A program made the position numbers and the translations under genes. Below, piece after piece: positions 22,826 to 35,072 of a stretch of 64,000 nucleotides of DNA. The stretch spans positions 7,482-71,481 of the forward strand of contig DASVDZ010000004.1 in assembly GCA_036380835.1 (NCBI GenBank), written 5' to 3'. The notes under the pieces were generated by a model. It had not been told where the DNA came from. It saw only the letters and a program-made list of their open reading frames with translations, and made no database searches. Positions within the stretch are counted from its first letter, which is position 1. Every line of letters starts with the position of its first letter. Origin of the DNA: Candidatus Eiseniibacteriota bacterium. GTDB lineage: Bacteria > Eisenbacteria > RBG-16-71-46 > SZUA-252.

Positions 22826-24009
22826 CGCTCCCCGGCCGGTGCGGCGTCGACCCGAACCTCCGCGCCGCCGCCGCCGAGCGTGTCGGCCGACGGGGGCCGG
22901 ATTCCGAGCGCCACGACCGGGGCCAGCGTGGTCACGAGCGCGTAGATCACGAGGCCGCCGAAGAGACGCGGCGGGAGGTCGTAGCGGTCGCGGGCGATCT
23001 CCGCGAGCACGAGGCAGAAGACCAGCGTCGGCGTCATCGACAGCGCGATCCGAAGCCCGTGGCGGAACGGCTCTCCGAGCGCGATGCGCCGGTGGAGCGT
23101 GACGGTCGCGAGGCGCACCGGGACCGCGACCAGGACGAAGATCGCTCCCACGGCCAGCGCGCGCAGGGTCAGGTCGTGCGTGCGCAGGTGGAGCCCCGCC
23201 GAGAAGAAGTAGAACGGGATGAAGAACGACGCGAAGACCTCGACCGCGTGGAACATCCGGTCGCTTCCGACCGCCGGGTACTGATCGCGGAACCGTCCGG
23301 CGGCCCACCCCACGACGAACGCCCCGACCAGATAGTAGACGCCCAGCGCGCGCGTCGCGTACCCGCACAGGATCGCCATCATGACGAGGAAGGCGAACTC
23401 GGAGCCGGGCGCGGCCGGCGCCACGCCCGCGGCGAAGACGCGAAAGGCGATCGGCAGGATGAAGATCAGCGCCGCCAGGGCCGCGGTCGCGAGGCCGAAC
23501 CGGAGCGGGGACGTGGACTGCGTCACTCCGAAGAGGATCAGGAGCGCCAGGAGCTCCGTCGCGATCGCCTTGGCCTTCACCCACGCGGCCTCGGACTCGG
23601 TCATCCCCGTCGATCGAAGCGTGCTCAGGATGAACCCCGTGGACGGGGTCAGGAGCGCGAGCGAGACGAGGCACGCGGGACGCCAACCGATCTGCGCGAC
23701 CGACATCGCGGCCCACGTGCCGGCCGCGACGAGAACGCTCCGGATCGCGAGATGCTGCAGGAGGACGAAGCGGTCGCGCGCGAGCGCGCGCACGTCCACG
23801 TCGAGCCCCGCCAACAGGAAGAGCGCGATGATCCCGAACGAGGAGAGGAGCGCGATCGTCGTGTCGCCGTGGAAGAGGCCCAGGCCGACCCCCGCCGCCG
23901 CTCCGAGGCCGAGCTCGGTGATGGCGGTCGGGATGCGGAAGCGGAGGATGACCTTGGGGACGACGAAGAGGGCGAAGACGAGGAGGACGTACGTGAGCTC
24001 TCCGCTCAC
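22822..24009 (-). CDS. Cation:proton antiporter (CPA1/CPA2 Na+/H+ exchanger family) membrane protein
   Basis: 395 aa, about 11-12 TM helices, Na_H exchanger-like pattern (LLSSFGIIALFLLAGLDVDVRAL ... VFASFFIPFYFFSAGLHL). Lies 3 nt downstream of crp/fnr on the same strand. Confidence 0.8.
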   Translation of the reverse strand: MSGELTYVLLVFALFVVPKVILRFRIPTAITELGLGAAAGVGLGLFHGDTTIALLSSFGIIALFLLAGLDVDVRALARDRFVLLQHLAIRSVLVAAGTWAAMSVAQIGWRPACLVSLALLTPSTGFILSTLRSTGMTESEAAWVKAKAIATELLALLILFGVTQSTSPLRFGLATAALAALIFILPIAFRVFAAGVAPAAPGSEFAFLVMMAILCGYATRALGVYYLVGAFVVGWAAGRFRDQYPAVGSDRMFHAVEVFASFFIPFYFFSAGLHLRTHDLTLRALAVGAIFVLVAVPVRLATVTLHRRIALGEPFRHGLRIALSMTPTLVFCLVLAEIARDRYDLPPRLFGGLVIYALVTTLAPVVALGIRPPSADTLGGGGAEVRVDAAPAGER

Positions 24010-24012
24010 GAG

Positions 24013-24726
24013 CTACCCGCGCCCCTCGGCGATCTCGCGCAGCCGGTCGAGGGACGGCACCAGGAAGCGGTCGCGTCCGGTGATCACGAGGCGTTCGCGT
24101 CCCCACCGGGAGAGGACCCGGATGGCGGTCTCGACCGTCGTTCCGACGAGGTCGGCGACCTCCTGGCGCGAAAGCTGGATCGGAATCTCGGTTCCGCCCT
24201 TCGCCTCGCGCCCCATGCGTTCGACGAGCGTGAGGAAGAGCTGGGCGATGCGCACGTCGACCTTCTGGCCCCGCATCTCCTGGAGCTTGCGGGTCAGCGA
24301 GACGGTGAGCTTGGTCAGCTCGCGGATGATCGCGCGGGCGAACTCGGGATTGCGGTCGAGCAGTTCGAAGTAGTCGCGCCGCGGAACCCAAAGGAGCGTG
24401 ACGGCCTCCAGGCAGATGGCGCTGGCCGGGTAGGGCATGTAGTTGTAGACGGCGATCGCGCCGACCGGCTCGCCTTCCTCGAACAGCTCGAGGATCACGT
24501 CCCCCGCGTCCCCGTGGGAGACGATCTTCACCCGCCCCTTGACGATCAGGGTGAGCGACTCGGCGGGGTCGCCGGCGCGCCAGAGGTAGTCGCCGCGCGC
24601 GTACTCGCGGATCGCCGCGAGCGCGGCGAGGCGCCGCTGGTCTTCCGGCGAGAGCCCTCGGAAGAGCGGGATCGCGCGCACCGCCCCGAGCACTCGATCG
24701 TCCCGAAGCTCCGCCGTCATGGGCAC
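24013..24726 (-). CDS. Crp/Fnr-family transcriptional regulator (cNMP-binding domain + C-terminal HTH); candidate NnrR/Dnr-like regulator of the adjacent nos cluster
   Basis: 237 aa. cNMP-binding beta-roll (YLWRAGDPAESLTLIVKGRVKIV ... GEPVGAIAV) and HTH (LSRQEVADLVGTTVETAIRVLSRW). No N-terminal Cys cluster, so not an FNR-type Fe-S sensor. Confidence 0.9.
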   Translation of the reverse strand: MPMTAELRDDRVLGAVRAIPLFRGLSPEDQRRLAALAAIREYARGDYLWRAGDPAESLTLIVKGRVKIVSHGDAGDVILELFEEGEPVGAIAVYNYMPYPASAICLEAVTLLWVPRRDYFELLDRNPEFARAIIRELTKLTVSLTRKLQEMRGQKVDVRIAQLFLTLVERMGREAKGGTEIPIQLSRQEVADLVGTTVETAIRVLSRWGRERLVITGRDRFLVPSLDRLREIAEGRG

Positions 24727-24743
24727 CGCCCCTCCGCGGCCGT

Positions 24744-24757
24744 ATGACGGCCGTCAT
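24744..24757. promoter_or_regulatory. Perfect 14-bp palindrome ATGACGGCCGTCAT (FNR/Dnr-type TGAC-N4-GTCA box)
   Basis: It is its own reverse complement. It lies 18-31 nt upstream of the crp/fnr ATG (24726), in the divergent intergenic region shared with the hemerythrin-cytc-nosZ operon. Confidence 0.6.
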
Positions 24758-24839
24758 GGTCCTTTGGTCTACCTCTCCCTATCTCCGTTCACTTCTATCA
24801 CTTTCAGCGGGATCGCGGCAGCCGAAATGTGATCGCGGC

Positions 24840-24853
24840 GTGACGCCGGTCAT
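24840..24853. promoter_or_regulatory. Second FNR/Dnr-type box GTGACGCCGGTCAT (TGAC-N4-GTCA half-sites)
   Basis: Palindromic half-sites TGAC/GTCA with a 4-nt spacer, about 84-97 nt upstream of the hemerythrin-like ATG (24937). This spacing suits a class-II activator site for the nos operon promoter. Confidence 0.55.
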
Positions 24854-24936
24854 GCCGCCGGGATCCGATTCCGCCGAAACTCCTTCGTGACGGCAATGCA
24901 GACGGGAGTTCATGAACCACACGGAGGACGAACGAG

Positions 24937-25467
24937 ATGGACGCCGACAGCCTGATCGAGAGGATCAAGAGCGATCACCGGCGCGTGCTTGCCGAGGTCT
25001 CGAGGCTGGAGTCGCTCCTCGCCCGCGGCGGGGCCACGCGCCCGGCGCCTCAGGCGAAGCTCGACGCGCTCGTCCGGATGCTCGAGCGCGAGTTCGGAAC
25101 CCACATGGCGGCCGAGGACGAGGCGCTCTACCCGGCGGTCGTCGCGGTGGTTCCCGCGGCCAAGGGAAGCGTCGAGCCGCTCCACGATGAGCACGCCGAG
25201 CTTCGCGCGATGCTCGAGCGGCTCCGCGAGACGATGGGCGAGCCGGGAGGCGCCGAGCGCGACGAACAGGTCACCGTCCAGGTGGCCGACCTGGCGGCGC
25301 TCCTCCGGATCCACATCCGAAAGGAGGAGTCGCTCGTCCTGAGCGTCGCGGCGCGGCTCCTCAGACCTCAAGACATCGACGCGATCGTGAAGCGAATGCA
25401 CCCGGAGCGCTCCGGCGAGGGCGCCCGGCCCACCACCACGGCACCCACGAAAGGGGACGCACGATGA
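24937..25467 (+). CDS. Hemerythrin-like (HHE cation-binding) domain protein, first gene of the nos operon
   Basis: 176 aa. Repeated His/Glu motifs characteristic of hemerythrin-like di-iron domains (SDHRRVLAEV, THMAAEDEALYP, LHDEHAEL, IHIRKEE). RBS GGAGGA before the ATG. The stop overlaps the cytochrome c ATG (ATGA). Confidence 0.75.
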   Translation: MDADSLIERIKSDHRRVLAEVSRLESLLARGGATRPAPQAKLDALVRMLEREFGTHMAAEDEALYPAVVAVVPAAKGSVEPLHDEHAELRAMLERLRETMGEPGGAERDEQVTVQVADLAALLRIHIRKEESLVLSVAARLLRPQDIDAIVKRMHPERSGEGARPTTTAPTKGDAR

Positions 25468-25937
25468 AGCGCATGTTGATCCGGGCCGCGATCCTGATCC
25501 TGGCGGCGGCGGCCTGGGGATGCGGAGGCGGCAAGTCGACGGACACGAAGGGGGCCGCCGGCGGCGCCGCCGTCTCTCCCTACGACAACGGGCCGCGCGC
25601 GGCCGATTCCCCGGTCGCGGTGGCGCTCGCCGAGAAGGGAGCGGGCCTTTTCAAGGCCAAGGGCTGCACCGCGTGCCACGCGTACGGCAAGCGCCTGACC
25701 GGTCCCGACCTGAAGGGCGTGACGCACCGGCGGACGGCCGACTGGATGGAACATCAGATCCTGCACCCGGAGATCATGACCAAGGAGGATCCCATCTCGC
25801 GTCAGCTCCTCGCCACGTACGCCGTGCAGATGTCGAACCAGGGACTCACGCCCGACGAGGCCAAGTCGGTCATCGAATACCTGAAGAAGCTGGACGAGGA
25901 GACGGACGAAAAGGAAGGGACGCAGGCCCAGAAGTGA
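25464..25937 (+). CDS. Monoheme c-type cytochrome, secreted (NosC-like candidate electron donor to NosZ)
   Basis: 157 aa, signal peptide, single CxxCH (KGCTACHAY). Lies immediately upstream of nosZ; a diverged paralog sits at 34028..34576. Confidence 0.85.
   Translation: MKRMLIRAAILILAAAAWGCGGGKSTDTKGAAGGAAVSPYDNGPRAADSPVAVALAEKGAGLFKAKGCTACHAYGKRLTGPDLKGVTHRRTADWMEHQILHPEIMTKEDPISRQLLATYAVQMSNQGLTPDEAKSVIEYLKKLDEETDEKEGTQAQK
25870..25898 (+). repeat. 29-nt exact repeat (copy 1) within the paralogous cytochrome c genes flanking the nos cluster
   Basis: gtcatcgaatacctgaagaagctggacga is identical at 25870..25898 and 34436..34464. The surrounding ~300 nt are diverged paralogous sequence (direct repeats about 8.5 kb apart). 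Confidence 0.8.
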
Positions 25938-25966
25938 GCCCCGCCCATACCAGAGGAGGAACAGTC

Positions 25967-27862
25967 ATGAAGCGTTGGATCGGTCTCAGCCTCGCGTTCG
26001 CGGTCGCGCTCGTCGCCGCGGCGCTCGTGGGAGGGTGCGGCGGCGGTCGCGGGTCGAACGCGGCGCTCAAGACGTACGTGAAGCCCGGAGAGCACGACAC
26101 GCACTACGCGTTCCTCTCCGGGGGCCACTCCGGGCAGGTGTTCGTGTACGGCCTTCCGTCCTGCCGCTACATCACCACGATCCCCGTGTTCACCCCGGAG
26201 CCCGCCAAGGGCTACGGCATCGACGAGGAGTCGAAGGCGATGCTCAAGGGCTTCACCTGGGGCGACGCGCACCACCCGGGCCTCTCCGAGACGAACGGCG
26301 ACTACGACGGACGCTGGCTCTTCATCAACGACATGCCGAACGCGCGAATCGCGCGGATCGACCTGAGCGACTTCACGACCCGCGAGATCTTCGGGCCGAT
26401 CCCGAACGTCTCCGCGGCGCACGCGTGCCCCTTCCCGACCCCGAACACCGAATACGTCTTCGCCGCGTCGCGATTCTCGATCCCTCTCCCCTTCCCCAGC
26501 GTGGCCAAGGTCGAGGACTACCAGACCAAGTTCAAGGGGATCGTGGCCGGCGTGAAGGTGAGCCCGGAAGGCCACATGTCGCTCGGATTCGAGATCCTGA
26601 CGCCGCCGTTCGACTGGGACCTCTCCGACGCCGGCAAGGGACCGAGCGAGGGGTGGCAATTCTTCACCTGCTACAACAGCGAAGAGGCCCACGACTCGCT
26701 GGAGATCAAGGCCTCCCAGAACGAGATGGACTACTTCCTCGCGGTGAACTGGCGTGAGGCGCAGAAGGCGAGCGACGCGGGCAAGGGTCACATGCTCGGG
26801 GGCGTGCCGGTCCTGACGCCGTCGGAGAACAAGGGAATCTGCTACCTGGTCCCGGTTCCGAAGAGCCCGCACGGCGTCGACGTCACGCCGAGCGGCGAGT
26901 TCATCTGCTGCTCCGGTAAGCTCCAGGCCGAAGTGACCGTCTACAACTTCAAGAAGATGATGGACGCCATCCAGGCCGGGAAGTTCGAGAAGGAGGTCGA
27001 GGGAATCCCGGTGATCGCCTTCCAGGACGTGATGGAGGCAAGGGTTCCGGTCGGTCTCGGCCCGCTCCACACGCAGTTCGACAACAAGGGCTACGCCTAC
27101 ACGTCCCTCTTCCTCGACTCGCAGATCGCGAAATGGAAGGTCGGTCCGCCGTGGAACGTGGTGGACAAGATCGACGTCTACTACTCGATCGGCCACCTCG
27201 CCGCTTCGGGGGGCGACACGCGCCACCCGACGGGCGAATACCTGCTCGCGCTCGACAAGCTCTCGAAGGACCGCTACCTGCCGGTCGGACCGTCCCACCC
27301 CGAGGCGACGCAGCTGATCGACATCCGGGGCTCGAAGATGGAGCTCCTCTACGACTTCCCGACGTATCCCGAGCCGCACTACGCGCAGATCATCGAGGCG
27401 AGCAAGCTCAAGCCGCTCAAGATCTACTCGCTCGCCGACAACAAGAACCCCGACGCGGTCAAGTCGGCCGACCAGACGCGCGTGGAGCGCCACGGCCGGC
27501 GGGTCGACGCCTACATGCTGACGATCCGCACGCACTTCACGCCCGACATCATCCGCGTGGCGCAGGGCGACACGATCTACTTCCACGTCACCAACCTGGA
27601 GCAGGACGAGGACATCACGCACGGCTTCGGGATCACCTTCTCGAGCAAGGACATGCAGGTCGAGCCCGGCGAGACGAAGACGATGCGGTGGGTGGCCGAG
27701 CGGGCCGGCATCCAGCCCTTCTACTGCTCCAATTTCTGCAGCGCGCTTCACCAGGAGATGCAGGGATACATCGAGGTGAATCCGCCGGGGACGAAGCTGG
27801 CCCAGGTGGCCCGGCCGAGTCCCGAGGAGATCGCGGAAGTCACCGCGCTCCTTCGGCGGTGA
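25967..27862 (+). CDS. nosZ: Nitrous-oxide reductase NosZ, clade II (Sec/lipoprotein-type signal)
   Basis: 631 aa. RBS GAGGAGGA. Signal MKRWIGLSLAFAVALVAAALVGGC without a twin-arginine motif. CuZ-site region (WGDAHHPGLSETNGDYDGRWLFINDMPNARIARIDL) and C-terminal CuA cupredoxin motif (HGFGI ... FYCSNFCSALHQEMQG). Confidence 0.97.
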   Translation: MKRWIGLSLAFAVALVAAALVGGCGGGRGSNAALKTYVKPGEHDTHYAFLSGGHSGQVFVYGLPSCRYITTIPVFTPEPAKGYGIDEESKAMLKGFTWGDAHHPGLSETNGDYDGRWLFINDMPNARIARIDLSDFTTREIFGPIPNVSAAHACPFPTPNTEYVFAASRFSIPLPFPSVAKVEDYQTKFKGIVAGVKVSPEGHMSLGFEILTPPFDWDLSDAGKGPSEGWQFFTCYNSEEAHDSLEIKASQNEMDYFLAVNWREAQKASDAGKGHMLGGVPVLTPSENKGICYLVPVPKSPHGVDVTPSGEFICCSGKLQAEVTVYNFKKMMDAIQAGKFEKEVEGIPVIAFQDVMEARVPVGLGPLHTQFDNKGYAYTSLFLDSQIAKWKVGPPWNVVDKIDVYYSIGHLAASGGDTRHPTGEYLLALDKLSKDRYLPVGPSHPEATQLIDIRGSKMELLYDFPTYPEPHYAQIIEASKLKPLKIYSLADNKNPDAVKSADQTRVERHGRRVDAYMLTIRTHFTPDIIRVAQGDTIYFHVTNLEQDEDITHGFGITFSSKDMQVEPGETKTMRWVAERAGIQPFYCSNFCSALHQEMQGYIEVNPPGTKLAQVARPSPEEIAEVTALLRR

Positions 27863-27926: not shown

Positions 27927-28544
27927 ATGGTCACGTACCTGAACGGCGCGTTCGCGACGAAAGAGCGGAGGCTCGTTCTCCTGGCCGCGCTGGTGCTGCT
28001 CCCGGTCTTCTTCCTCCCCGTGCTCCACGTCTGGGAGATGCGACTCTGGGCGCCGCAGTACCCCGAGGGCCTCCGGCTCACGATCTACTCGAACACCATC
28101 CGGGGCGACCTCGACAAGATCAACCTGCTGAACCACTACGTCGGGATGCATCCGATCACGCCGGCCGACTTCGCGGAGTTCCATTACCTGCCGCAGCTCC
28201 TGACCGGATTCGGCGTCCTGGCCCTCCTCGCGGCGCTCCTCAACCGGCGGTGGATCGCGGTCCTCGGGTGGCTCCTCTTCACCGGATTCGCGGTCTACAT
28301 GTTCCGGGACTACGCCCTGTGGCTCTGGCGCTACGGGCACGACCTCGATCCCCGCGCGGCGCTCAAGCTCCCCACCTTCTCGCCCCCCCTGATCGGGTTC
28401 GCGCGCATGGCGAACTTCCGGGTCCTGAGCCTCCCCGGTCCGGGCACGCTCCTCCTCGGCGTCGCCTGGCTCCTCGGTCCGATCGCGCTCTGGCTCGAAC
28501 GGCGCCACGGGAAGCGCGCTCCCGCGGCGGCCGACCGCCCTTGA
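27927..28544 (+). CDS. nosB: NosB-like integral membrane protein (clade-II nos cluster-specific)
   Basis: 205 aa, about 4-6 TM helices. Its position directly after nosZ and before nosD is diagnostic of clade-II clusters. Confidence 0.75.
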   Translation: MVTYLNGAFATKERRLVLLAALVLLPVFFLPVLHVWEMRLWAPQYPEGLRLTIYSNTIRGDLDKINLLNHYVGMHPITPADFAEFHYLPQLLTGFGVLALLAALLNRRWIAVLGWLLFTGFAVYMFRDYALWLWRYGHDLDPRAALKLPTFSPPLIGFARMANFRVLSLPGPGTLLLGVAWLLGPIALWLERRHGKRAPAAADRP

Positions 28545-29986
28545 TGATGTCCGAGCGGCGCGGCCGTCCGTTCCTGGCCGGGCTCCTCCTCGCCGCGGCG
28601 CTCGCCGCCGGCGGCGCCGGCTCGGCCAGCGCCGCGCGACGGGAGATCCCGGCTCGCGGAGACGCCGCCGAGACCGCGATCCTCGAAGCGGCCGACGGCG
28701 ACACCCTCCTGCTCGGCGCCGGCGTCCACCGCGGCCCGCTGATCCTCTCGCGCCGTCTCCTCCTCCGGGGAGCTCCGGGCGCGGTGCTCGACGGCGGCGG
28801 CGCCGGGACCGTGCTCACGGTGGCGGCCGCTGGCGCCGCGGTCGAATCGCTGACCATCCGGGGGAGCGGGAACGGCGCGCTGACGCTCGACGCGGGGGTC
28901 CACGTCGTCTCCGCCCGGGGCGTCCGGCTCCGCGGCCTTCGCGTGGTCGACGTCCTCTACGGGATCGCCGGGGAGCGCGCCGACTCGCTCGTGATCGAAG
29001 GCTGCGACCTGACCGGCCGCGTCCATCCCTCCGTCGACGTGACCCCCGAGATGAACGAAGCCGCGGGCAACGGCGTCCACCTCTGGTACTGTCGGGACGT
29101 CGCCGTCCGGCGCGTCGCGGAACGGCGCTTCATGGACGGAGTCTATCTCTCGTTCGTCGACCGGATCGTGGTCGAGGACGGACGCTTCTCGCGGAACGGC
29201 CGCTACGGGCTCCACACGATGTACTGTCAGGACAATCGCCTCGCCCGGAACCGCTTCCAGTTCAACCTCGCGGGCTGCGCGATCATGTTCTCGAACCATC
29301 TCGAGCTCTCCCGGAACGACTTCGTGCACAACCGCGGACCGCGCACGTACGGCGTCCTCCTCCGGGATTGCTCCGACGGCCACTTCCTCGAGAACCGCAT
29401 GGTCGACAACACCGTCGCCGTCTTCATGGACAACTCGAACCGGAACGTGATCCGGCGGAATCTCGTGCAGGACAACGGCTGGGGCGTGATCCTCTTCTCC
29501 TCCTGCGCCGGAAACGAATTCGCGGAGAACGACTTCGTCAACGACGACTACCCCGTGGCCCTCGACATGCGCTACTCGGACAACCGGTTCGACGACGGGC
29601 GTCGCGGCAACTACTGGAGCGGGAACGCCCCCTACGACCTGGACGGCGACGGCGCGAGCGACGTACCGTACTCGCCCGTGAGCGCCTTCGCGTTCCTCTC
29701 GAAGCGGTATCCCGACCTCGCGATCCTCGCCCAGAGCCCCGCCGCGAACGCCCTCACGATGGCGGAGCGGACCATCCCCGCGCTTCGGCCGAGCCAGATC
29801 GTCGACCGGTTCCCGCTCGTCGCGCCCGCCCCCGTCGGCGCGGGCGCCGGTGGCTCGCGAGGAACGCGCGCCGCCGGGGACGAGGCGCCGGGGGCTCGGC
29901 GCGGTTCGTTCCCCACCGCGGCCGCCTTCCTCCTCCTGGCCGCCGCGGGACTCAGGGGCGTCGCCTCGCGAGGGGGCCCGCGGTGA
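28544..29986 (+). CDS. nosD: NosD, periplasmic right-handed beta-helix (CASH-domain) copper-processing protein
   Basis: Start ATG 28544 overlaps the nosB stop (TGATG). Signal peptide, parallel beta-helix repeats (NRFQFNLAGCAIMFSNHLELSRNDFVHN ... NRNVIRRNLVQDNGWGVILFSS ... NEFAENDFVNDDYPVALD). The track ORF start at 27887 is rejected. Confidence 0.9.
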   Translation: MMSERRGRPFLAGLLLAAALAAGGAGSASAARREIPARGDAAETAILEAADGDTLLLGAGVHRGPLILSRRLLLRGAPGAVLDGGGAGTVLTVAAAGAAVESLTIRGSGNGALTLDAGVHVVSARGVRLRGLRVVDVLYGIAGERADSLVIEGCDLTGRVHPSVDVTPEMNEAAGNGVHLWYCRDVAVRRVAERRFMDGVYLSFVDRIVVEDGRFSRNGRYGLHTMYCQDNRLARNRFQFNLAGCAIMFSNHLELSRNDFVHNRGPRTYGVLLRDCSDGHFLENRMVDNTVAVFMDNSNRNVIRRNLVQDNGWGVILFSSCAGNEFAENDFVNDDYPVALDMRYSDNRFDDGRRGNYWSGNAPYDLDGDGASDVPYSPVSAFAFLSKRYPDLAILAQSPAANALTMAERTIPALRPSQIVDRFPLVAPAPVGAGAGGSRGTRAAGDEAPGARRGSFPTAAAFLLLAAAGLRGVASRGGPR

Positions 29987-32685: not shown

Positions 32686-33942
32686 ATGGAGGTGAGGATC
32701 CCGCTCCAGGAGGGAGCGCGCCCGCCCGCGCCGCCGGCGGCGGGGGGCGAGGCCAAGCGAGCGCCCGGCAGTCCGGCCGAACCGCCCGACCCCTACCGCA
32801 TCCTCTTCCCGATGGGCGTGGCCTACGGGATCGCCGGCGCGGCGCTCTGGCCGCTTCACGCGCTGGGCCTCATCCCGTACCCCGCCCAGCTTCACTGGAC
32901 CCTGATGGCGCAGGGGTTCCAGCATTGCTTCATTCTCGGCTTCTTATTGACCGCCATGCCGTCGTTCATGCATGCCGAACACTGTCGCCGTTCGGAGCTC
33001 GTGATCGCGGTCGTCGCGATGGCGGGGTTCGGCGTCGCGGCCGTCCTAGGATGGGCGGCGGCGACCCAGGCGTGTTATCTGGCGACGCTCGCGCTGATCG
33101 TCGCGATGGCCTTCCGCCGGCGCCGGCAGGGGGCCGCCTCGCCGCCGGTCGAGTTCTCGCTCGTCGCGTTCGGGATCGCCCTCGGCGCCGTGGGATCGGC
33201 GATGATCGGAGGCGCCGCGCTCGGCCTCTTCGACGAGCCGGCGCCGCGCCTCGGGATCCGTCTCGTCTGGATGGGCATGATCCTCTCCGCGGTGCTCGGC
33301 GTCGGCGGCCTGCTCGTGCCGACGTTCAGCGCCATGCGCGAGCCGCTCGAGATCCCCGGCATCGCCCGGCCGCACGAGCGGCGGCCCCGGCGGATCCTCT
33401 ACGGCGTCGTGGCCCTCCTCCTCCTCTGCTCGCTGATTCTCGAGGGGGCGGGCCACGCCGCCCTCGGCGCCATCCTGAGGGCGGCCACCGCCAGCGGCGT
33501 GCTGCTCCTCGTCTGGAAGCTGTTCCGAAGGCCGGGGCGAGCCGACCTGCTCTCCTACGCGATCTGGGCCGCCGGGTGGTCGATCTTCGCCGGTCTCTGG
33601 CTGATGGCGTTCTTCCCGTCGCACCCCCTGCTCGGCGCGCACTTCGTCCTGATCGGGGGATTCGGGCTCCTCTCGGCGGGGATCGGAACGCGGGTCGTGG
33701 TGCGGCACGGCGGCCATCCGCTTCCCGAGGAGGGGCGCGTCCTGCGCCCGGCGGTGATCGCGCTCCTCGCGGCGACGCTCGCCGCGCGGGCGGCGGGCGA
33801 GCTGGCTCCTGGCCCTCGTCTCACGCTCCTCGCCGCGAGCGCGCTCGCGTGGATCGCCGCGTGGACCGTCTGGGCGGTCGGGGCGGCGCCGCGAATCCGG
33901 CGCCGCCGCGCGCCGCGCGCGGACGCGCCGCGGACCGCGTGA
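32686..33942 (+). CDS. nnrS: NnrS-family heme-copper membrane protein (NO-response)
   Basis: 418 aa, about 12 TM helices. The NnrS hallmark HWTLMAQGFQHCFILGFLLTAMPSFMHAEH (GFLLTA) plus conserved His positions. Starts 4 nt after nosY. Confidence 0.75.
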   Translation: MEVRIPLQEGARPPAPPAAGGEAKRAPGSPAEPPDPYRILFPMGVAYGIAGAALWPLHALGLIPYPAQLHWTLMAQGFQHCFILGFLLTAMPSFMHAEHCRRSELVIAVVAMAGFGVAAVLGWAAATQACYLATLALIVAMAFRRRRQGAASPPVEFSLVAFGIALGAVGSAMIGGAALGLFDEPAPRLGIRLVWMGMILSAVLGVGGLLVPTFSAMREPLEIPGIARPHERRPRRILYGVVALLLLCSLILEGAGHAALGAILRAATASGVLLLVWKLFRRPGRADLLSYAIWAAGWSIFAGLWLMAFFPSHPLLGAHFVLIGGFGLLSAGIGTRVVVRHGGHPLPEEGRVLRPAVIALLAATLAARAAGELAPGPRLTLLAASALAWIAAWTVWAVGAAPRIRRRRAPRADAPRTA

Positions 33943-33961
33943 CGCGAACGCCCCGATCCGG

Positions 33962-34020
33962 TATAATGAGCGTATCGTTGTAGGTTTCCGCGCATCTCAG
34001 AAGGGTTTCCCCACGGAAAC
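33962..34020 (+). promoter_or_regulatory. Promoter-like element (perfect TATAAT in GGTATAATG) plus 7-bp inverted repeat GTTTCCG...CGGAAAC in the 5' leader of the second cytochrome c gene
   Basis: TATAAT at 33962..33967 is conspicuous against the GC-rich background. Inverted repeat 33984..33990 / 34014..34020 separated by 23 nt, with the direct repeat GGTTTCC twice. It ends 8 nt before the ATG at 34028. Confidence 0.4.
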
Positions 34021-34027
34021 GAACCGC

Positions 34028-34576
34028 ATGGCGTCGAGACGTCGCTCGGCAATCCTGGTCGCGCTCGCGGCCGCCACCGCTGGCGGCTGCGGATGGTTCC
34101 AATCCCCGAAGACCACCGCCCCCACCCCGGAAGCCGTCGTTTCCGTCTATGACCGCGGCCCGCGGGCCGGCGAGGCGCCCTACATGCCGGTCTGGGCGAT
34201 CAGGGGGGAGTCTCTGTTCGTCCAGAAGGGCTGCAAGGCATGCCACGCCTATGGAGCCCGCCTCACCGGCCCCGACCTGAGGGGCGTCACCCGCCGGCGC
34301 TCCGCCGAGTGGATGGAGCAACAGATCCTCCACCCCGACGTCATGACCAAGGAAGATCCGATCTCGATGGCCCTGTTCGCCGAGTACGTCGCGCAGATGG
34401 CGAATCAAGGGCTCACGCCCGACGAGGCGAAGGACGTCATCGAATACCTGAAGAAGCTGGACGACGGGACGGAGGAGCGGGAAGGGCCGCAGGCCTTCCA
34501 GACCCAGAGCCCTCCGCCCTTCGCCGTTCCCGACTCGTCGGCTCCTCCCGCTACTTCCTCTCCACCGCCTTCTTGA
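34028..34576 (+). CDS. Monoheme c-type cytochrome, paralog of the 25464..25937 gene
   Basis: 182 aa, signal peptide, single CxxCH (KGCKACHAY). About 70% identical over the core to the nosZ-upstream cytochrome, including the identical 29-nt stretch at 34436..34464. Pro/Ser-rich C-terminal tail. Confidence 0.85.
   Translation: MASRRRSAILVALAAATAGGCGWFQSPKTTAPTPEAVVSVYDRGPRAGEAPYMPVWAIRGESLFVQKGCKACHAYGARLTGPDLRGVTRRRSAEWMEQQILHPDVMTKEDPISMALFAEYVAQMANQGLTPDEAKDVIEYLKKLDDGTEEREGPQAFQTQSPPPFAVPDSSAPPATSSPPPS
34436..34464 (+). repeat. 29-nt exact repeat (copy 2), see 25870..25898
   Basis: Identical to 25870..25898. Confidence 0.8.
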
Positions 34577-35072
34577 GCGCCGCCATGGTGGCGGCCATCT
34601 CCCCTTCCATCTTCCCTGCCGTCGCCTGCAGATCCTCCGCCTTGCTCTCGTCCGTGTACTGCTCCACGTACGTGACGTGCGTCATGGCGCCGCTCGGAGA
34701 GAGGAGGAGCTTCGCCTGGCACATGTAGGAGCCGTTCGTCGGCTCGTGCGCGACGCGAAGCTCCTTGCCGCGGTCGAGGTAGGTCACGATCGAGCGGCCC
34801 CCGTTCCCGAACTCGTCGGTGAAATCGAGCACGTCGCCCACCTTGGCGATCGTCACCTTGGCGTTCGACGCGTTCTTCCAGACCGGGCACCAGGTGACGA
34901 GGTTCTTGCCCGCGGTCAGATAGCTCCAGACGGCGACCGGTGGCGCGGCGATGTCCGCTTCCGACGTGAGGCGAACGACCGGGATCTGCTTCCACTCCGC
35001 GGACGCGGTCCCGGCGGACCCCGCGGCGAGGGTGAACGAGGCGAGCACGGCGAGGGCGAAACGGCGCTTCAT
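34551..35072 (-). CDS. Secreted SRPBCC-superfamily (AHSA1/START-like) protein
   Basis: 173 aa, signal peptide MKRRFALAVLASFTLAAGSAGTASA. Alpha/beta-grip-like pattern (WSYLTAGKNLVTWCPVW ... ). The 3' end overlaps the convergent cytochrome c gene by about 26 nt. Confidence 0.65.
   Translation of the reverse strand: MKRRFALAVLASFTLAAGSAGTASAEWKQIPVVRLTSEADIAAPPVAVWSYLTAGKNLVTWCPVWKNASNAKVTIAKVGDVLDFTDEFGNGGRSIVTYLDRGKELRVAHEPTNGSYMCQAKLLLSPSGAMTHVTYVEQYTDESKAEDLQATAGKMEGEMAATMAALKKAVERK

Follow-up and report, generated by a model that had tools for sequence, protein, structure and literature searches.

How is a nitrous oxide reductase (nos) operon switched on in an uncultured soil lineage, and what is the role of two palindromes that separate this operon from the divergent gene of a Crp/Fnr-superfamily regulator? 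The question is raised by a 64,000-nt stretch of DNA from a Candidatus Eisenbacteria genome (assembly GCA_036380835.1, contig DASVDZ010000004.1), which has a G+C content of 71% and is called the window below. Organisms with clade II nosZ are considered the main biological sink of nitrous oxide (N2O) in soils, and to our knowledge almost nothing is known outside the Campylobacterota about how clade II NosZ is switched on. The literature searched contained nothing relevant on the regulation of nos in Eisenbacteria or on hemerythrin–nosZ clusters. An earlier inspection of the window from its letters alone (the sequence-only reading) had reported the two palindromes, and both are present in the 216-bp intergenic region, at the positions listed here with the flanking genes:

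24013 to 24720, minus strand: Crp/Fnr-superfamily regulator, 235 amino acids (PF00027, PF13545, PF00325)
24744 to 24757, strandless: box 1, ATGACGGCCGTCAT, within the 16-mer TATGACGGCCGTCATG at 24743-24758; position weight matrix (PWM) score 24.7
24840 to 24853, strandless: box 2, GTGACGCCGGTCAT; PWM score 18.0
24937 to 25467, plus strand: hemerythrin-domain protein, operon gene 1 (PF01814, 76 bits; synteny kept wherever the flank of a locus suffices)

We consider it probable that the two boxes are operators of the adjacent regulator, with box 2 serving as a class II activator site, box 1 as an autoregulatory site, and an N-oxide as the cue. The parts of this model are of different strength, and they are taken up in turn below.

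To describe the conservation of the boxes, a scan with one genome per species was used, which gave 38 loci that encode close relatives (67-83% identical) of the window regulator; almost all of these loci carry an Eisenbacteria label. The window and the 34 Eisenbacteria loci with a complete intergenic region formed a set of 35 orthologous regions; the Eisenbacteria DNA covered was the 64-kb window and 12-kb loci. The data showed that both boxes are kept in 35 of 35 regions with a start-to-start spacing of 96-100 bp. Every copy of box 1 (35/35) has the TGA and TCA trinucleotides, and box 2 keeps them almost without exception (the A of TGA in 34 of 35), while the columns flanking the boxes carry almost no information. 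Box 1, which is a perfect 14-bp palindrome in the window, is the more symmetric of the two and outscores box 2 in a large majority of loci. The string TGAC-N4-GTCA occurs three times in the 64 kb against 0.50 expected, a count reached in 2 of 100 shuffles, and a Poisson estimate from the window rate gives a P of about 1e-6 for two matches within one 216-bp intergenic region. The third match, at 34673-34684, lies inside an SRPBCC gene (34551-35072, minus strand) and was therefore set aside as a chance match; the remaining PWM matches (at 23368 and 52085 in the window, and in loci L023, L026, L028 and L032) all fall in coding sequence and were treated in the same way. Boxes 1 and 2 are the only intergenic high-scoring sites in 456 kb of Eisenbacteria DNA (window and loci). 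Judged by their presence, conservation and fixed geometry, both palindromes are genuine Crp/Fnr-type operators.

The 35 copies of box 1 follow the pattern T-A-TGAC-N4-(A in 22, G in 13)TCAT-(A/G), while those of box 2 follow (A/C/G)-TGAC-N4-GTCAT, and the consensus of the clade is T-ATGAY-N4-RTCAT-A (TATGAC-N4-GTCATA). Both boxes have the palindromic TGA-N6-TCA core that is characteristic of Crp/Fnr-superfamily operators, which lie near or upstream of their targets. The sequence-only reading had assigned the boxes a TTGAC-N4-GTCAA core; the inner TGAC/GTCA of this assignment is borne out, while its outer T is not, as T was found at the outer 14-mer position in 0 of 70 sites and A in 32 of 35 box 1 copies. 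The FNR, Dnr and HcpR1 boxes carry a T at this position (TTGAT or TTGAC; PMC1274295). The sites match neither the FNR/Dnr box TTGAT-N4-ATCAA and its Dnr-type form (C)TTGAT-N4-ATCAA(G), nor the NnrR box TTGCG-N4-CGCAA, nor the HcpR1 box TTGAC-N4-GTCAA. No publication describing an Fnr-type ATGAC/GTCAT motif was found in the literature searched, and a text search of Matsui et al. 2013 (PMC3590769) gave no match for the motif.

The motif was also sought around more distant regulators. A metagenome scan with an alignment of proteins related to the regulator (31-55% identity) yielded 80 kept loci (326 kb), all belonging to one sister family with 62-86% identity to the protein P0124, which is itself about 45% identical to the window regulator. 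Its members are named Acidobacteriota and Vicinamibacterales at NCBI, and it counts 5,194 metagenomic proteins at E <=1e-40. A matrix trained solely on Eisenbacteria boxes found 69 sites with a score of at least 15 in these loci, as compared with 2.5 on average, and never more than 5, in dinucleotide shuffles. Nearly all of these sites read TATGAC-N4-GTCATA, and because a plain TGA-N6-TCA regular expression recovers the same TATGAC...GTCATA flanks, the motif is no artefact of the matrix. The sites are located directly upstream or directly downstream of the regulator gene, and the products of the adjacent genes are ScdA_N-hemerythrin proteins (RIC/YtfE/DnrN type), one qNor-type NorB, radical-SAM proteins, NosZ and Usp. 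Hence, the motif travels with the regulator clade across differing gene contexts. The predicted enrichment of the motif before other denitrification genes was in this way observed for RIC/YtfE-like, qNor norB, nosZ and radical-SAM genes, in the sister family only and so in genomes other than that of the window.

The position of box 2 relative to the operon was deduced from the sequence that follows it. The gene beginning with the ATG at 24937, which is 83 nt past the end and 97 nt past the start of box 2, had been taken for the first nos gene; it is the hemerythrin-domain gene, and nosZ comes third in order. The features between the conserved patch upstream of box 2 and this gene are the following:

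24824 to 24828, strandless: GAAAT, a conserved A/T tract at about -64 to -60, which in the family reads GGAAATC (-64 to -59) and at some loci is a T-tract
24876 to 24881, plus strand: -10-like hexamer GAAACT (family consensus cGAnAcT), 22 nt past box 2
24887 to 24889, plus strand: predicted transcription start of the nos operon, placed 7 nt past the -10 hexamer, near 24888

A hexamer of the form nAnnnT (GACACT, GAAACT, GACAAT or GATGCT, for example) follows box 2 in all 35 regions, with a gap of 22 nt (27 loci) or 23 nt (9 loci), while leftward of box 2 no such hexamer was found at the matching gap in these regions. From the position of the hexamer, the centre of box 2 falls at -41.5, and a gap of 23 nt shifts it to -42.5. 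A scan of 24600-25000 for a strict sigma-70 consensus returned no promoter, and no -35-like hexamer was found beside box 2. The predicted start would give a 5′ untranslated region of about 49 nt, which contains GGAGGA at 24923-24928. A site near -41.5, no -35 hexamer, and a -10 element at the matching distance are together the geometry of a class II promoter. The same register was observed in the sister family, where TAtnCT/GAnAcT lies exactly 22 nt past the box and the ATG of the target follows 7 nt after the hexamer in the aligned sites, which points to leaderless mRNAs and sets the register without recourse to an assumed transcription start. In one of these loci (L088, 1110-1235) a single box serves two promoters with a 22-nt gap each, GACACT for a leaderless RIC gene to the left and CACACT for norB to the right, and in another (L068) GATACT lies 22 nt past the box upstream of nosZ. 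Many targets of the sister family are leaderless in this way, while those in L068 and L112 have short leaders. The contig of L112, which carries a sister-family regulator, also contains a perfect match to the sigma-54 -24/-12 element (TGGCAC-N5-TTGC, 2651-2668) upstream of cytochrome c-nosZ and downstream of a TATGAC-N4-GTCATA box.

These data agree with the earlier proposal of a class II site, and they argue well for box 2 as the class II activator site of the hemerythrin-cytochrome c-nosZ operon. A regulator dimer bound at box 2, at about -41.5, would stand in for the missing -35 element and recruit RNA polymerase to the weak -10 sequence GAAACT, and occupancy of box 2 would in this class II manner activate the operon hemerythrin-cytochrome c-nosZ-nosB-nosD and the genes beyond. 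The three most informative columns outside the boxes fall in the A/T tract, which is kept at a fixed distance from box 2 in an orientation that varies across loci. We speculate that at about -62 it could be an UP-like docking patch for the C-terminal domain of the RNA polymerase alpha subunit (alpha-CTD) or a site of DNA bending. The conserved AAT patch was also considered as a -10 element of a leftward promoter and rejected, as an A or T tract occurs either way (T-tracts in L007, L010 and L012); the variable orientation fits an UP-like patch or a bend better. Around the GAAAT patch, upstream of box 2, there is an exact direct repeat GATCGCGGC (24811-24819 and 24831-24839, 20 bp apart), which is not kept in other loci.

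To place the regulator among known proteins, its domains, similarities and recognition helix were compared. The protein is identical to P0001, a 235-amino-acid protein of a Candidatus Eisenbacteria metagenome-assembled genome (MAG), whose start is the ATG at 24720. Matches to PF00027 (65 bits), PF13545 (50 bits) and PF00325 (32 bits), all above cut-off, assign it to the Crp/Fnr superfamily, with an N-terminal beta-barrel resembling those that bind cyclic nucleotide monophosphates and a C-terminal Crp-type helix-turn-helix. Its sole cysteine, C103, is invariant in the family alignment, and the N-terminal Cys cluster is lacking, as had been seen before; the four ligating cysteines of the FNR [4Fe-4S] cluster (three N-terminal and one central) are not present. 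The residues that bind the cAMP phosphate in CRP-like chains are replaced (GE by GA and PRT(S/A)SA by PYPASA, with A88, Y97 and P98 invariant in the regulator family), and the protein does not qualify as a CRP-type cAMP receptor. The sequence-only reading favored a Dnr/NnrR-type protein, which the comparisons contradict. All NCBIfam matches are far below cut-off (the best, FtrB, with 61 bits vs 211; FNR, NF008365, with 38 vs 228). The closest solved structures are actinobacterial CRP/GlxR-like proteins (E 1e-16, or 5e-21 with a profile), while Dnr (3dkw; E 1.6e-9 with the single sequence, 2e-14 with the profile) ranks below actinobacterial CRP-like proteins, NtcA and others, and the FNR structure is found at E of about 7e-9 (2e-11 with the profile). 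By these sequence comparisons the regulator is placed outside Dnr, NnrR, FNR and every curated subfamily.

A library of 1.84 billion proteins contained only 67 cluster representatives at E <=1e-30, the nearest with 54-55% identity and the next with 40-49%. Among neighbours with 31-55% identity, E197 and R201 are invariant, I200 is found in at least 90%, and the motif PYPA[ST]A is shared; the helix of the whole clade reads x-E-T/S-A-I-R-[IV]-[ML]-S-R-W. On this evidence the regulator is a member of an uncharacterised clade in Candidatus Eisenbacteria, Acidobacteriota and probably other groups, and some clade members bear the name "nitrogen oxide reductase regulator" in the KEGG orthology-based naming of JGI. 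The recognition helix of the window protein is TTVETAIRVLSRW, and the family pattern is T-T-V-E-T/S-A-I-R-V-L-S-R-W, which corresponds to V180, E181, I184 and R185 in CRP numbering and to V208, E209, Ile in place of S212, and R213 in FNR numbering; the helix of FNR itself has the pattern E--SR. Spiro and colleagues are said to have shown in 1990 that Ser212 of FNR reads the outer T of the FNR box, and we infer that the Ser-to-Ile change in the helix may account for the change from T to A in the site. The roles of CRP residues 180, 181 and 185 have been summarised previously (PMC1274295).

The cue to which the regulator responds would be an N-oxide, with nitric oxide (NO) as the best candidate. 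Genes for hemerythrin, NnrS, RIC and qNor are classical members of NO-responsive regulons (PMC1274295), and the RIC, qNor, radical-SAM and NosZ targets of the sister family support an N-oxide regulon, probably one for NO. For the window regulator itself, NO sensing would be assigned through guilt by association only. Two observations weigh against this assignment. No nir or nor gene was found in the window or in the 12-kb Eisenbacteria loci, so that the link to NO is borrowed from the sister family, and the Eisenbacteria branch occurs only next to nos in the loci examined; the Eisenbacteria hosts may lack nir and nor. The regulator might then sense another cue, such as low oxygen or redox state through the conserved Cys103, N2O, or a metabolite, and the NO regulon of the sister family would not be transferable to it. 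The identity of only about 45% to the sister family and a likeness to Dnr/NnrR that does not rise above the superfamily level would agree with another cue, and NssC of Wolinella is an N2O-responsive Crp/Fnr regulator (PMC6682613). On the other hand, the operon opens with a hemerythrin-domain gene and holds nnrS, and the PYPA[ST]A sensor motif and the helix also occur in the sister family, which has RIC and qNor genes among its targets. We consider a cue other than NO possible, though doubtful.

The sensor domain contains neither Fe-S cysteines nor the cAMP residues, and no haem ligand is evident in it, although a dedicated examination for haem ligands was not made. A more far-reaching suggestion is that the clade with the ETAIR helix and the PYPA[ST]A pocket is a new sensor that acts as a dedicated switch of N2O respiration in uncultured soil phyla, the cue being N2O, or oxygen by way of the co-transcribed hemerythrin, which we regard as improbable.

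The role of box 1 is less clear-cut than that of box 2. Box 1 is separated by 17 nt from a GTG at 24726 and by 23 nt from the ATG at 24720, and two features of the regulator strand lie in its neighbourhood:

24731 to 24735, minus strand: GGAGG, Shine-Dalgarno sequence of the regulator, located between its start codon and box 1
24756 to 24761, minus strand: candidate -10-like hexamer GACCAT, weak and without a TTG, overlapping the right edge of box 1

Most orthologous regions also have CCTCC/CTCC-like strings between box 1 and the regulator. Since GGAGG lies between box 1 and the ATG, the regulator mRNA must start within box 1 or to its right. Activation of the regulator from box 1 as a class II site was rejected, as transcription would then begin 11 nt into the coding region, no alternative start codon is conserved (V10 is variable), and the Shine-Dalgarno sequence is placed between the box and the ATG. 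A second rightward promoter with box 1 as its class II site was rejected as well, as nAnnnT is present in 4 of 35 regions and the conserved yAAnyC ends in C; in neither direction from box 1 was a class II hexamer found (nAnnnT at the right distance in these 4/35 only). The sequence GCCGTCATGG is found both at 24713-24722, over the regulator start codon, and at 24750-24759, in the right half of box 1, so that a GTCAT half-site 37 bp away from box 1 contains the regulator ATG; this arrangement is not consistently conserved and is probably due to chance.

The half-sites of box 1 differ in their conservation, the left TGAC being found in 33 of 35 regions and the right ATCAT in 22 of 35, and an ATCAT half-site reads as TATGAT or CATGAT on the regulator strand. 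At 23 of 35 loci a -10-like hexamer (TATGAT, CATGAT, TACCAT or GACCAT) lies at the right edge of box 1, and at 15 of 35 a TTG is found 16-19 bp upstream of it. Box 1, the site of predicted higher affinity, directly adjoins the ribosome-binding site of the regulator gene and coincides in part with the best -10-like hexamers of that strand, and a dimer bound there would limit the regulator's own transcription. Negative autoregulation through occlusion of the promoter at box 1 is our best guess, with the chances about evenly balanced. The autoregulation proposed earlier would then be retained, most likely as repression, while activation of the class II kind does not fit the position of the start.

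Several points speak against negative autoregulation. The candidate regulator promoter of the window is weak (GACCAT, no TTG), and 12 of 35 loci have no -10-like hexamer at box 1. The spacing of 96-100 bp is held also where the regulator is 70-126 nt away (L018, L020, L021 and L033), which means that box 1 could act on the nos promoter. In L020 and L021, moreover, box 1 and the regulator start are about 126 nt apart and the hexamer GAGTGT or GAGCGT is found 22 nt to the left of box 1, which suggests positive (class II) autoregulation in those two loci. A different role for box 1 would be that of an upstream high-affinity site, at about -138 to -142, that helps the regulator to occupy the weaker box 2 through cooperative binding, looping or a local sink of regulator. 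The constancy of the box-to-box distance in 35 of 35 loci, including the four with a distant regulator start, would be explained in this way, and the higher score of box 1 in most loci and its lack of a class II -10 element in either direction are consistent with it. However, 96-100 bp correspond to 9.1-9.5 helical turns, so that the two sites would not share one face of the helix at every locus, and -138 is past the usual reach of alpha-CTD as it is known from class I and class III promoters. An overlapping -10 element on the regulator strand offers the best explanation for the preference for A over G in the right half-site, and in the sister family single boxes suffice at the target promoters. 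An upstream loading site without autoregulation appears unlikely to us, and negative autoregulation remains the reading that we favor for box 1.

Box 2 could in turn be a repressor site on the -35 region of the nos promoter, from which the regulator is released by a signal, as the box covers the spot where a -35 hexamer would lie and repression by Crp/Fnr proteins is known, as in the case of the E. coli fnr promoter. Yet the lack of a -35-like hexamer by box 2, the poor -10 sequence (GAnAcT) and the absence of a sigma-70 consensus are the signature of an activator-dependent promoter, and the exact register of 22 or 23 nt in 35 of 35 loci and in the sister family is demanded by class II activation and not by simple occlusion, so that we hold repression to be very improbable. 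The chance that the palindromes are accidental or structural features (a hairpin or a terminator remnant) or sites of an unrelated protein is negligible, since, although a weak terminator-like hairpin call overlaps box 1 and its window copy is perfectly palindromic, conservation is confined to the 5+5 arms around an N4 that is not conserved and usually not self-complementary, the region has no Rfam match, and the co-occurrence of the motif with the regulator clade in two families and many contexts effectively refutes this explanation.

The operon that box 2 would control continues as follows:

25464 to 25937, plus strand: cytochrome c, predicted lipoprotein
25964 to 27862, plus strand: NosZ, Sec-dependent (clade II) nitrous-oxide reductase (TIGR04246, 852 bits; cut-off 625)
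27927 to 28544, plus strand: nosB-position membrane protein that consistently follows nosZ in the loci; no Pfam match
28541 to 29986, plus strand: NosD (PF05048), start approximate
32686 to 33942, plus strand: NnrS-family protein within the nos cluster (PF05940, 117 bits)

Genes for an ABC-2 permease, NnrS and a second cytochrome c lie further along the nos cluster. The regulator is divergent from hemerythrin-cytochrome c-nosZ-nosB in every one of the 38 Eisenbacteria-type loci that has enough flank. In 14 of these 38 loci a P-type ATPase gene adjoins the regulator-nos locus; in the window it occupies 20855-22825, with a Na+/H+ exchanger gene (22822-24009) between it and the regulator, and the ATPase could supply copper to NosZ. 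The nos cluster ends with the second cytochrome c gene (34028-34576), which is preceded at 33940-33967 by a near-consensus sigma-70 promoter (TGACGC, 16 nt, TATAAT at 33962-33967) located in an AT-rich gap; the TATAAT of this promoter shows that canonical -10 elements exist in this genome of 71% G+C. One genome, MAG MFD05942.bin.1.32, has two separate regulator-hemerythrin-cytochrome c-nosZ loci (L023 and L029) with both boxes in each. The nosZ genes of L029, L008 and L014 look frameshifted, and assembly errors are the likely cause. Five contigs (L001, L002, L006, L036 and L037) are labelled Hyphomicrobiales, Omnitrophota, Saccharimonadaceae, Bacteroidota and Acidobacteriota; their regulators have 73-83% identity, the four with sufficient flank show Eisenbacteria-type synteny, and all five are probably mis-binned.

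What is new in these results is a large unclassified clade of regulators in uncultured soil phyla whose operator has an outer A, and a hemerythrin-first clade II nos operon with paired boxes at a fixed spacing. The clade appears, from its predicted sites, to control RIC, qNor, NosZ and radical-SAM genes in Acidobacteriota and Eisenbacteria. TATGAC-N4-GTCATA would score poorly with standard FNR/Dnr matrices, and N-oxide regulons of the two phyla can be predicted directly by a search of their MAGs with this motif. The locus offers a concrete promoter architecture for the control of clade II nos, and a clean hypothesis for the altered preference at the outer base is provided by the replacement of Ser by Ile in the helix.

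A Crp/Fnr dimer at -41.5 of a nos operon, together with a second site at the regulator gene, is an arrangement known for FNR, Dnr, NnrR, FixK2 and Nss. The class II promoters of FNR, Dnr and ANR share with the locus described here a dimer of the Crp/Fnr fold, a 5-N4-5 palindrome with a TGA-N6-TCA core, a site at -41.5 that replaces the -35 element, and nos as a target (PMC1274295), as Dnr acts at nirS, norC and nosZ of Pseudomonas. They differ in that the outer base is here an A and never a T, with C/G inside (ATGAC-N4-GTCAT), in that the regulator has Ile for Ser212, no Cys cluster and a similarity at the superfamily level only, and in that the hosts are Eisenbacteria and Acidobacteriota with clade II nosZ. 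The HcpR1 branch of HcpR (Geobacter, Desulfuromonas, cyanobacteria) has an identical inner TGAC/GTCA in its motif wyTTGACnnnnGTCAArw, a regulon of NO or nitrosative stress, and a regulator gene that is often divergent from its target (PMC1274295). In contrast to the sites described here, the HcpR sites have an outer T, their targets are hcp and frdX, while no hcp gene was seen beside any of the present boxes, and the helix of HcpR1 has Ser or Pro at the position of CRP R180, where the present regulator has Val, with Ile at 184. NnrR of alpha-proteobacteria (TTGCG-N4-CGCAA; nir, nor, nnrS and nos) resembles the window regulator in the lack of a Cys cluster and in having nnrS and nos in its regulon, but it recognizes another half-site and shows no specific sequence relationship. 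NssA, NssB and NssC are likewise Crp/Fnr-type regulators of a clade II nos system, which in Wolinella succinogenes they up-regulate on nitrate, NO or N2O (PMC6682613); relatives are found in Nitrosophilus (PMC11539149). They belong to another phylum, use TTGA-N6-TCAA boxes with a Dnr-type DNA-binding domain and, unlike the window regulator, are not encoded beside nosZ with paired boxes. The E. coli fnr promoter, which is negatively autoregulated, has FNR sites at about -0.5 and -103.5, and if the regulator transcript starts inside box 1, the two boxes would lie at similar positions, about -5 and about -100 to -105. The difference from fnr is that the distal site would here double as the class II site of a divergent operon.

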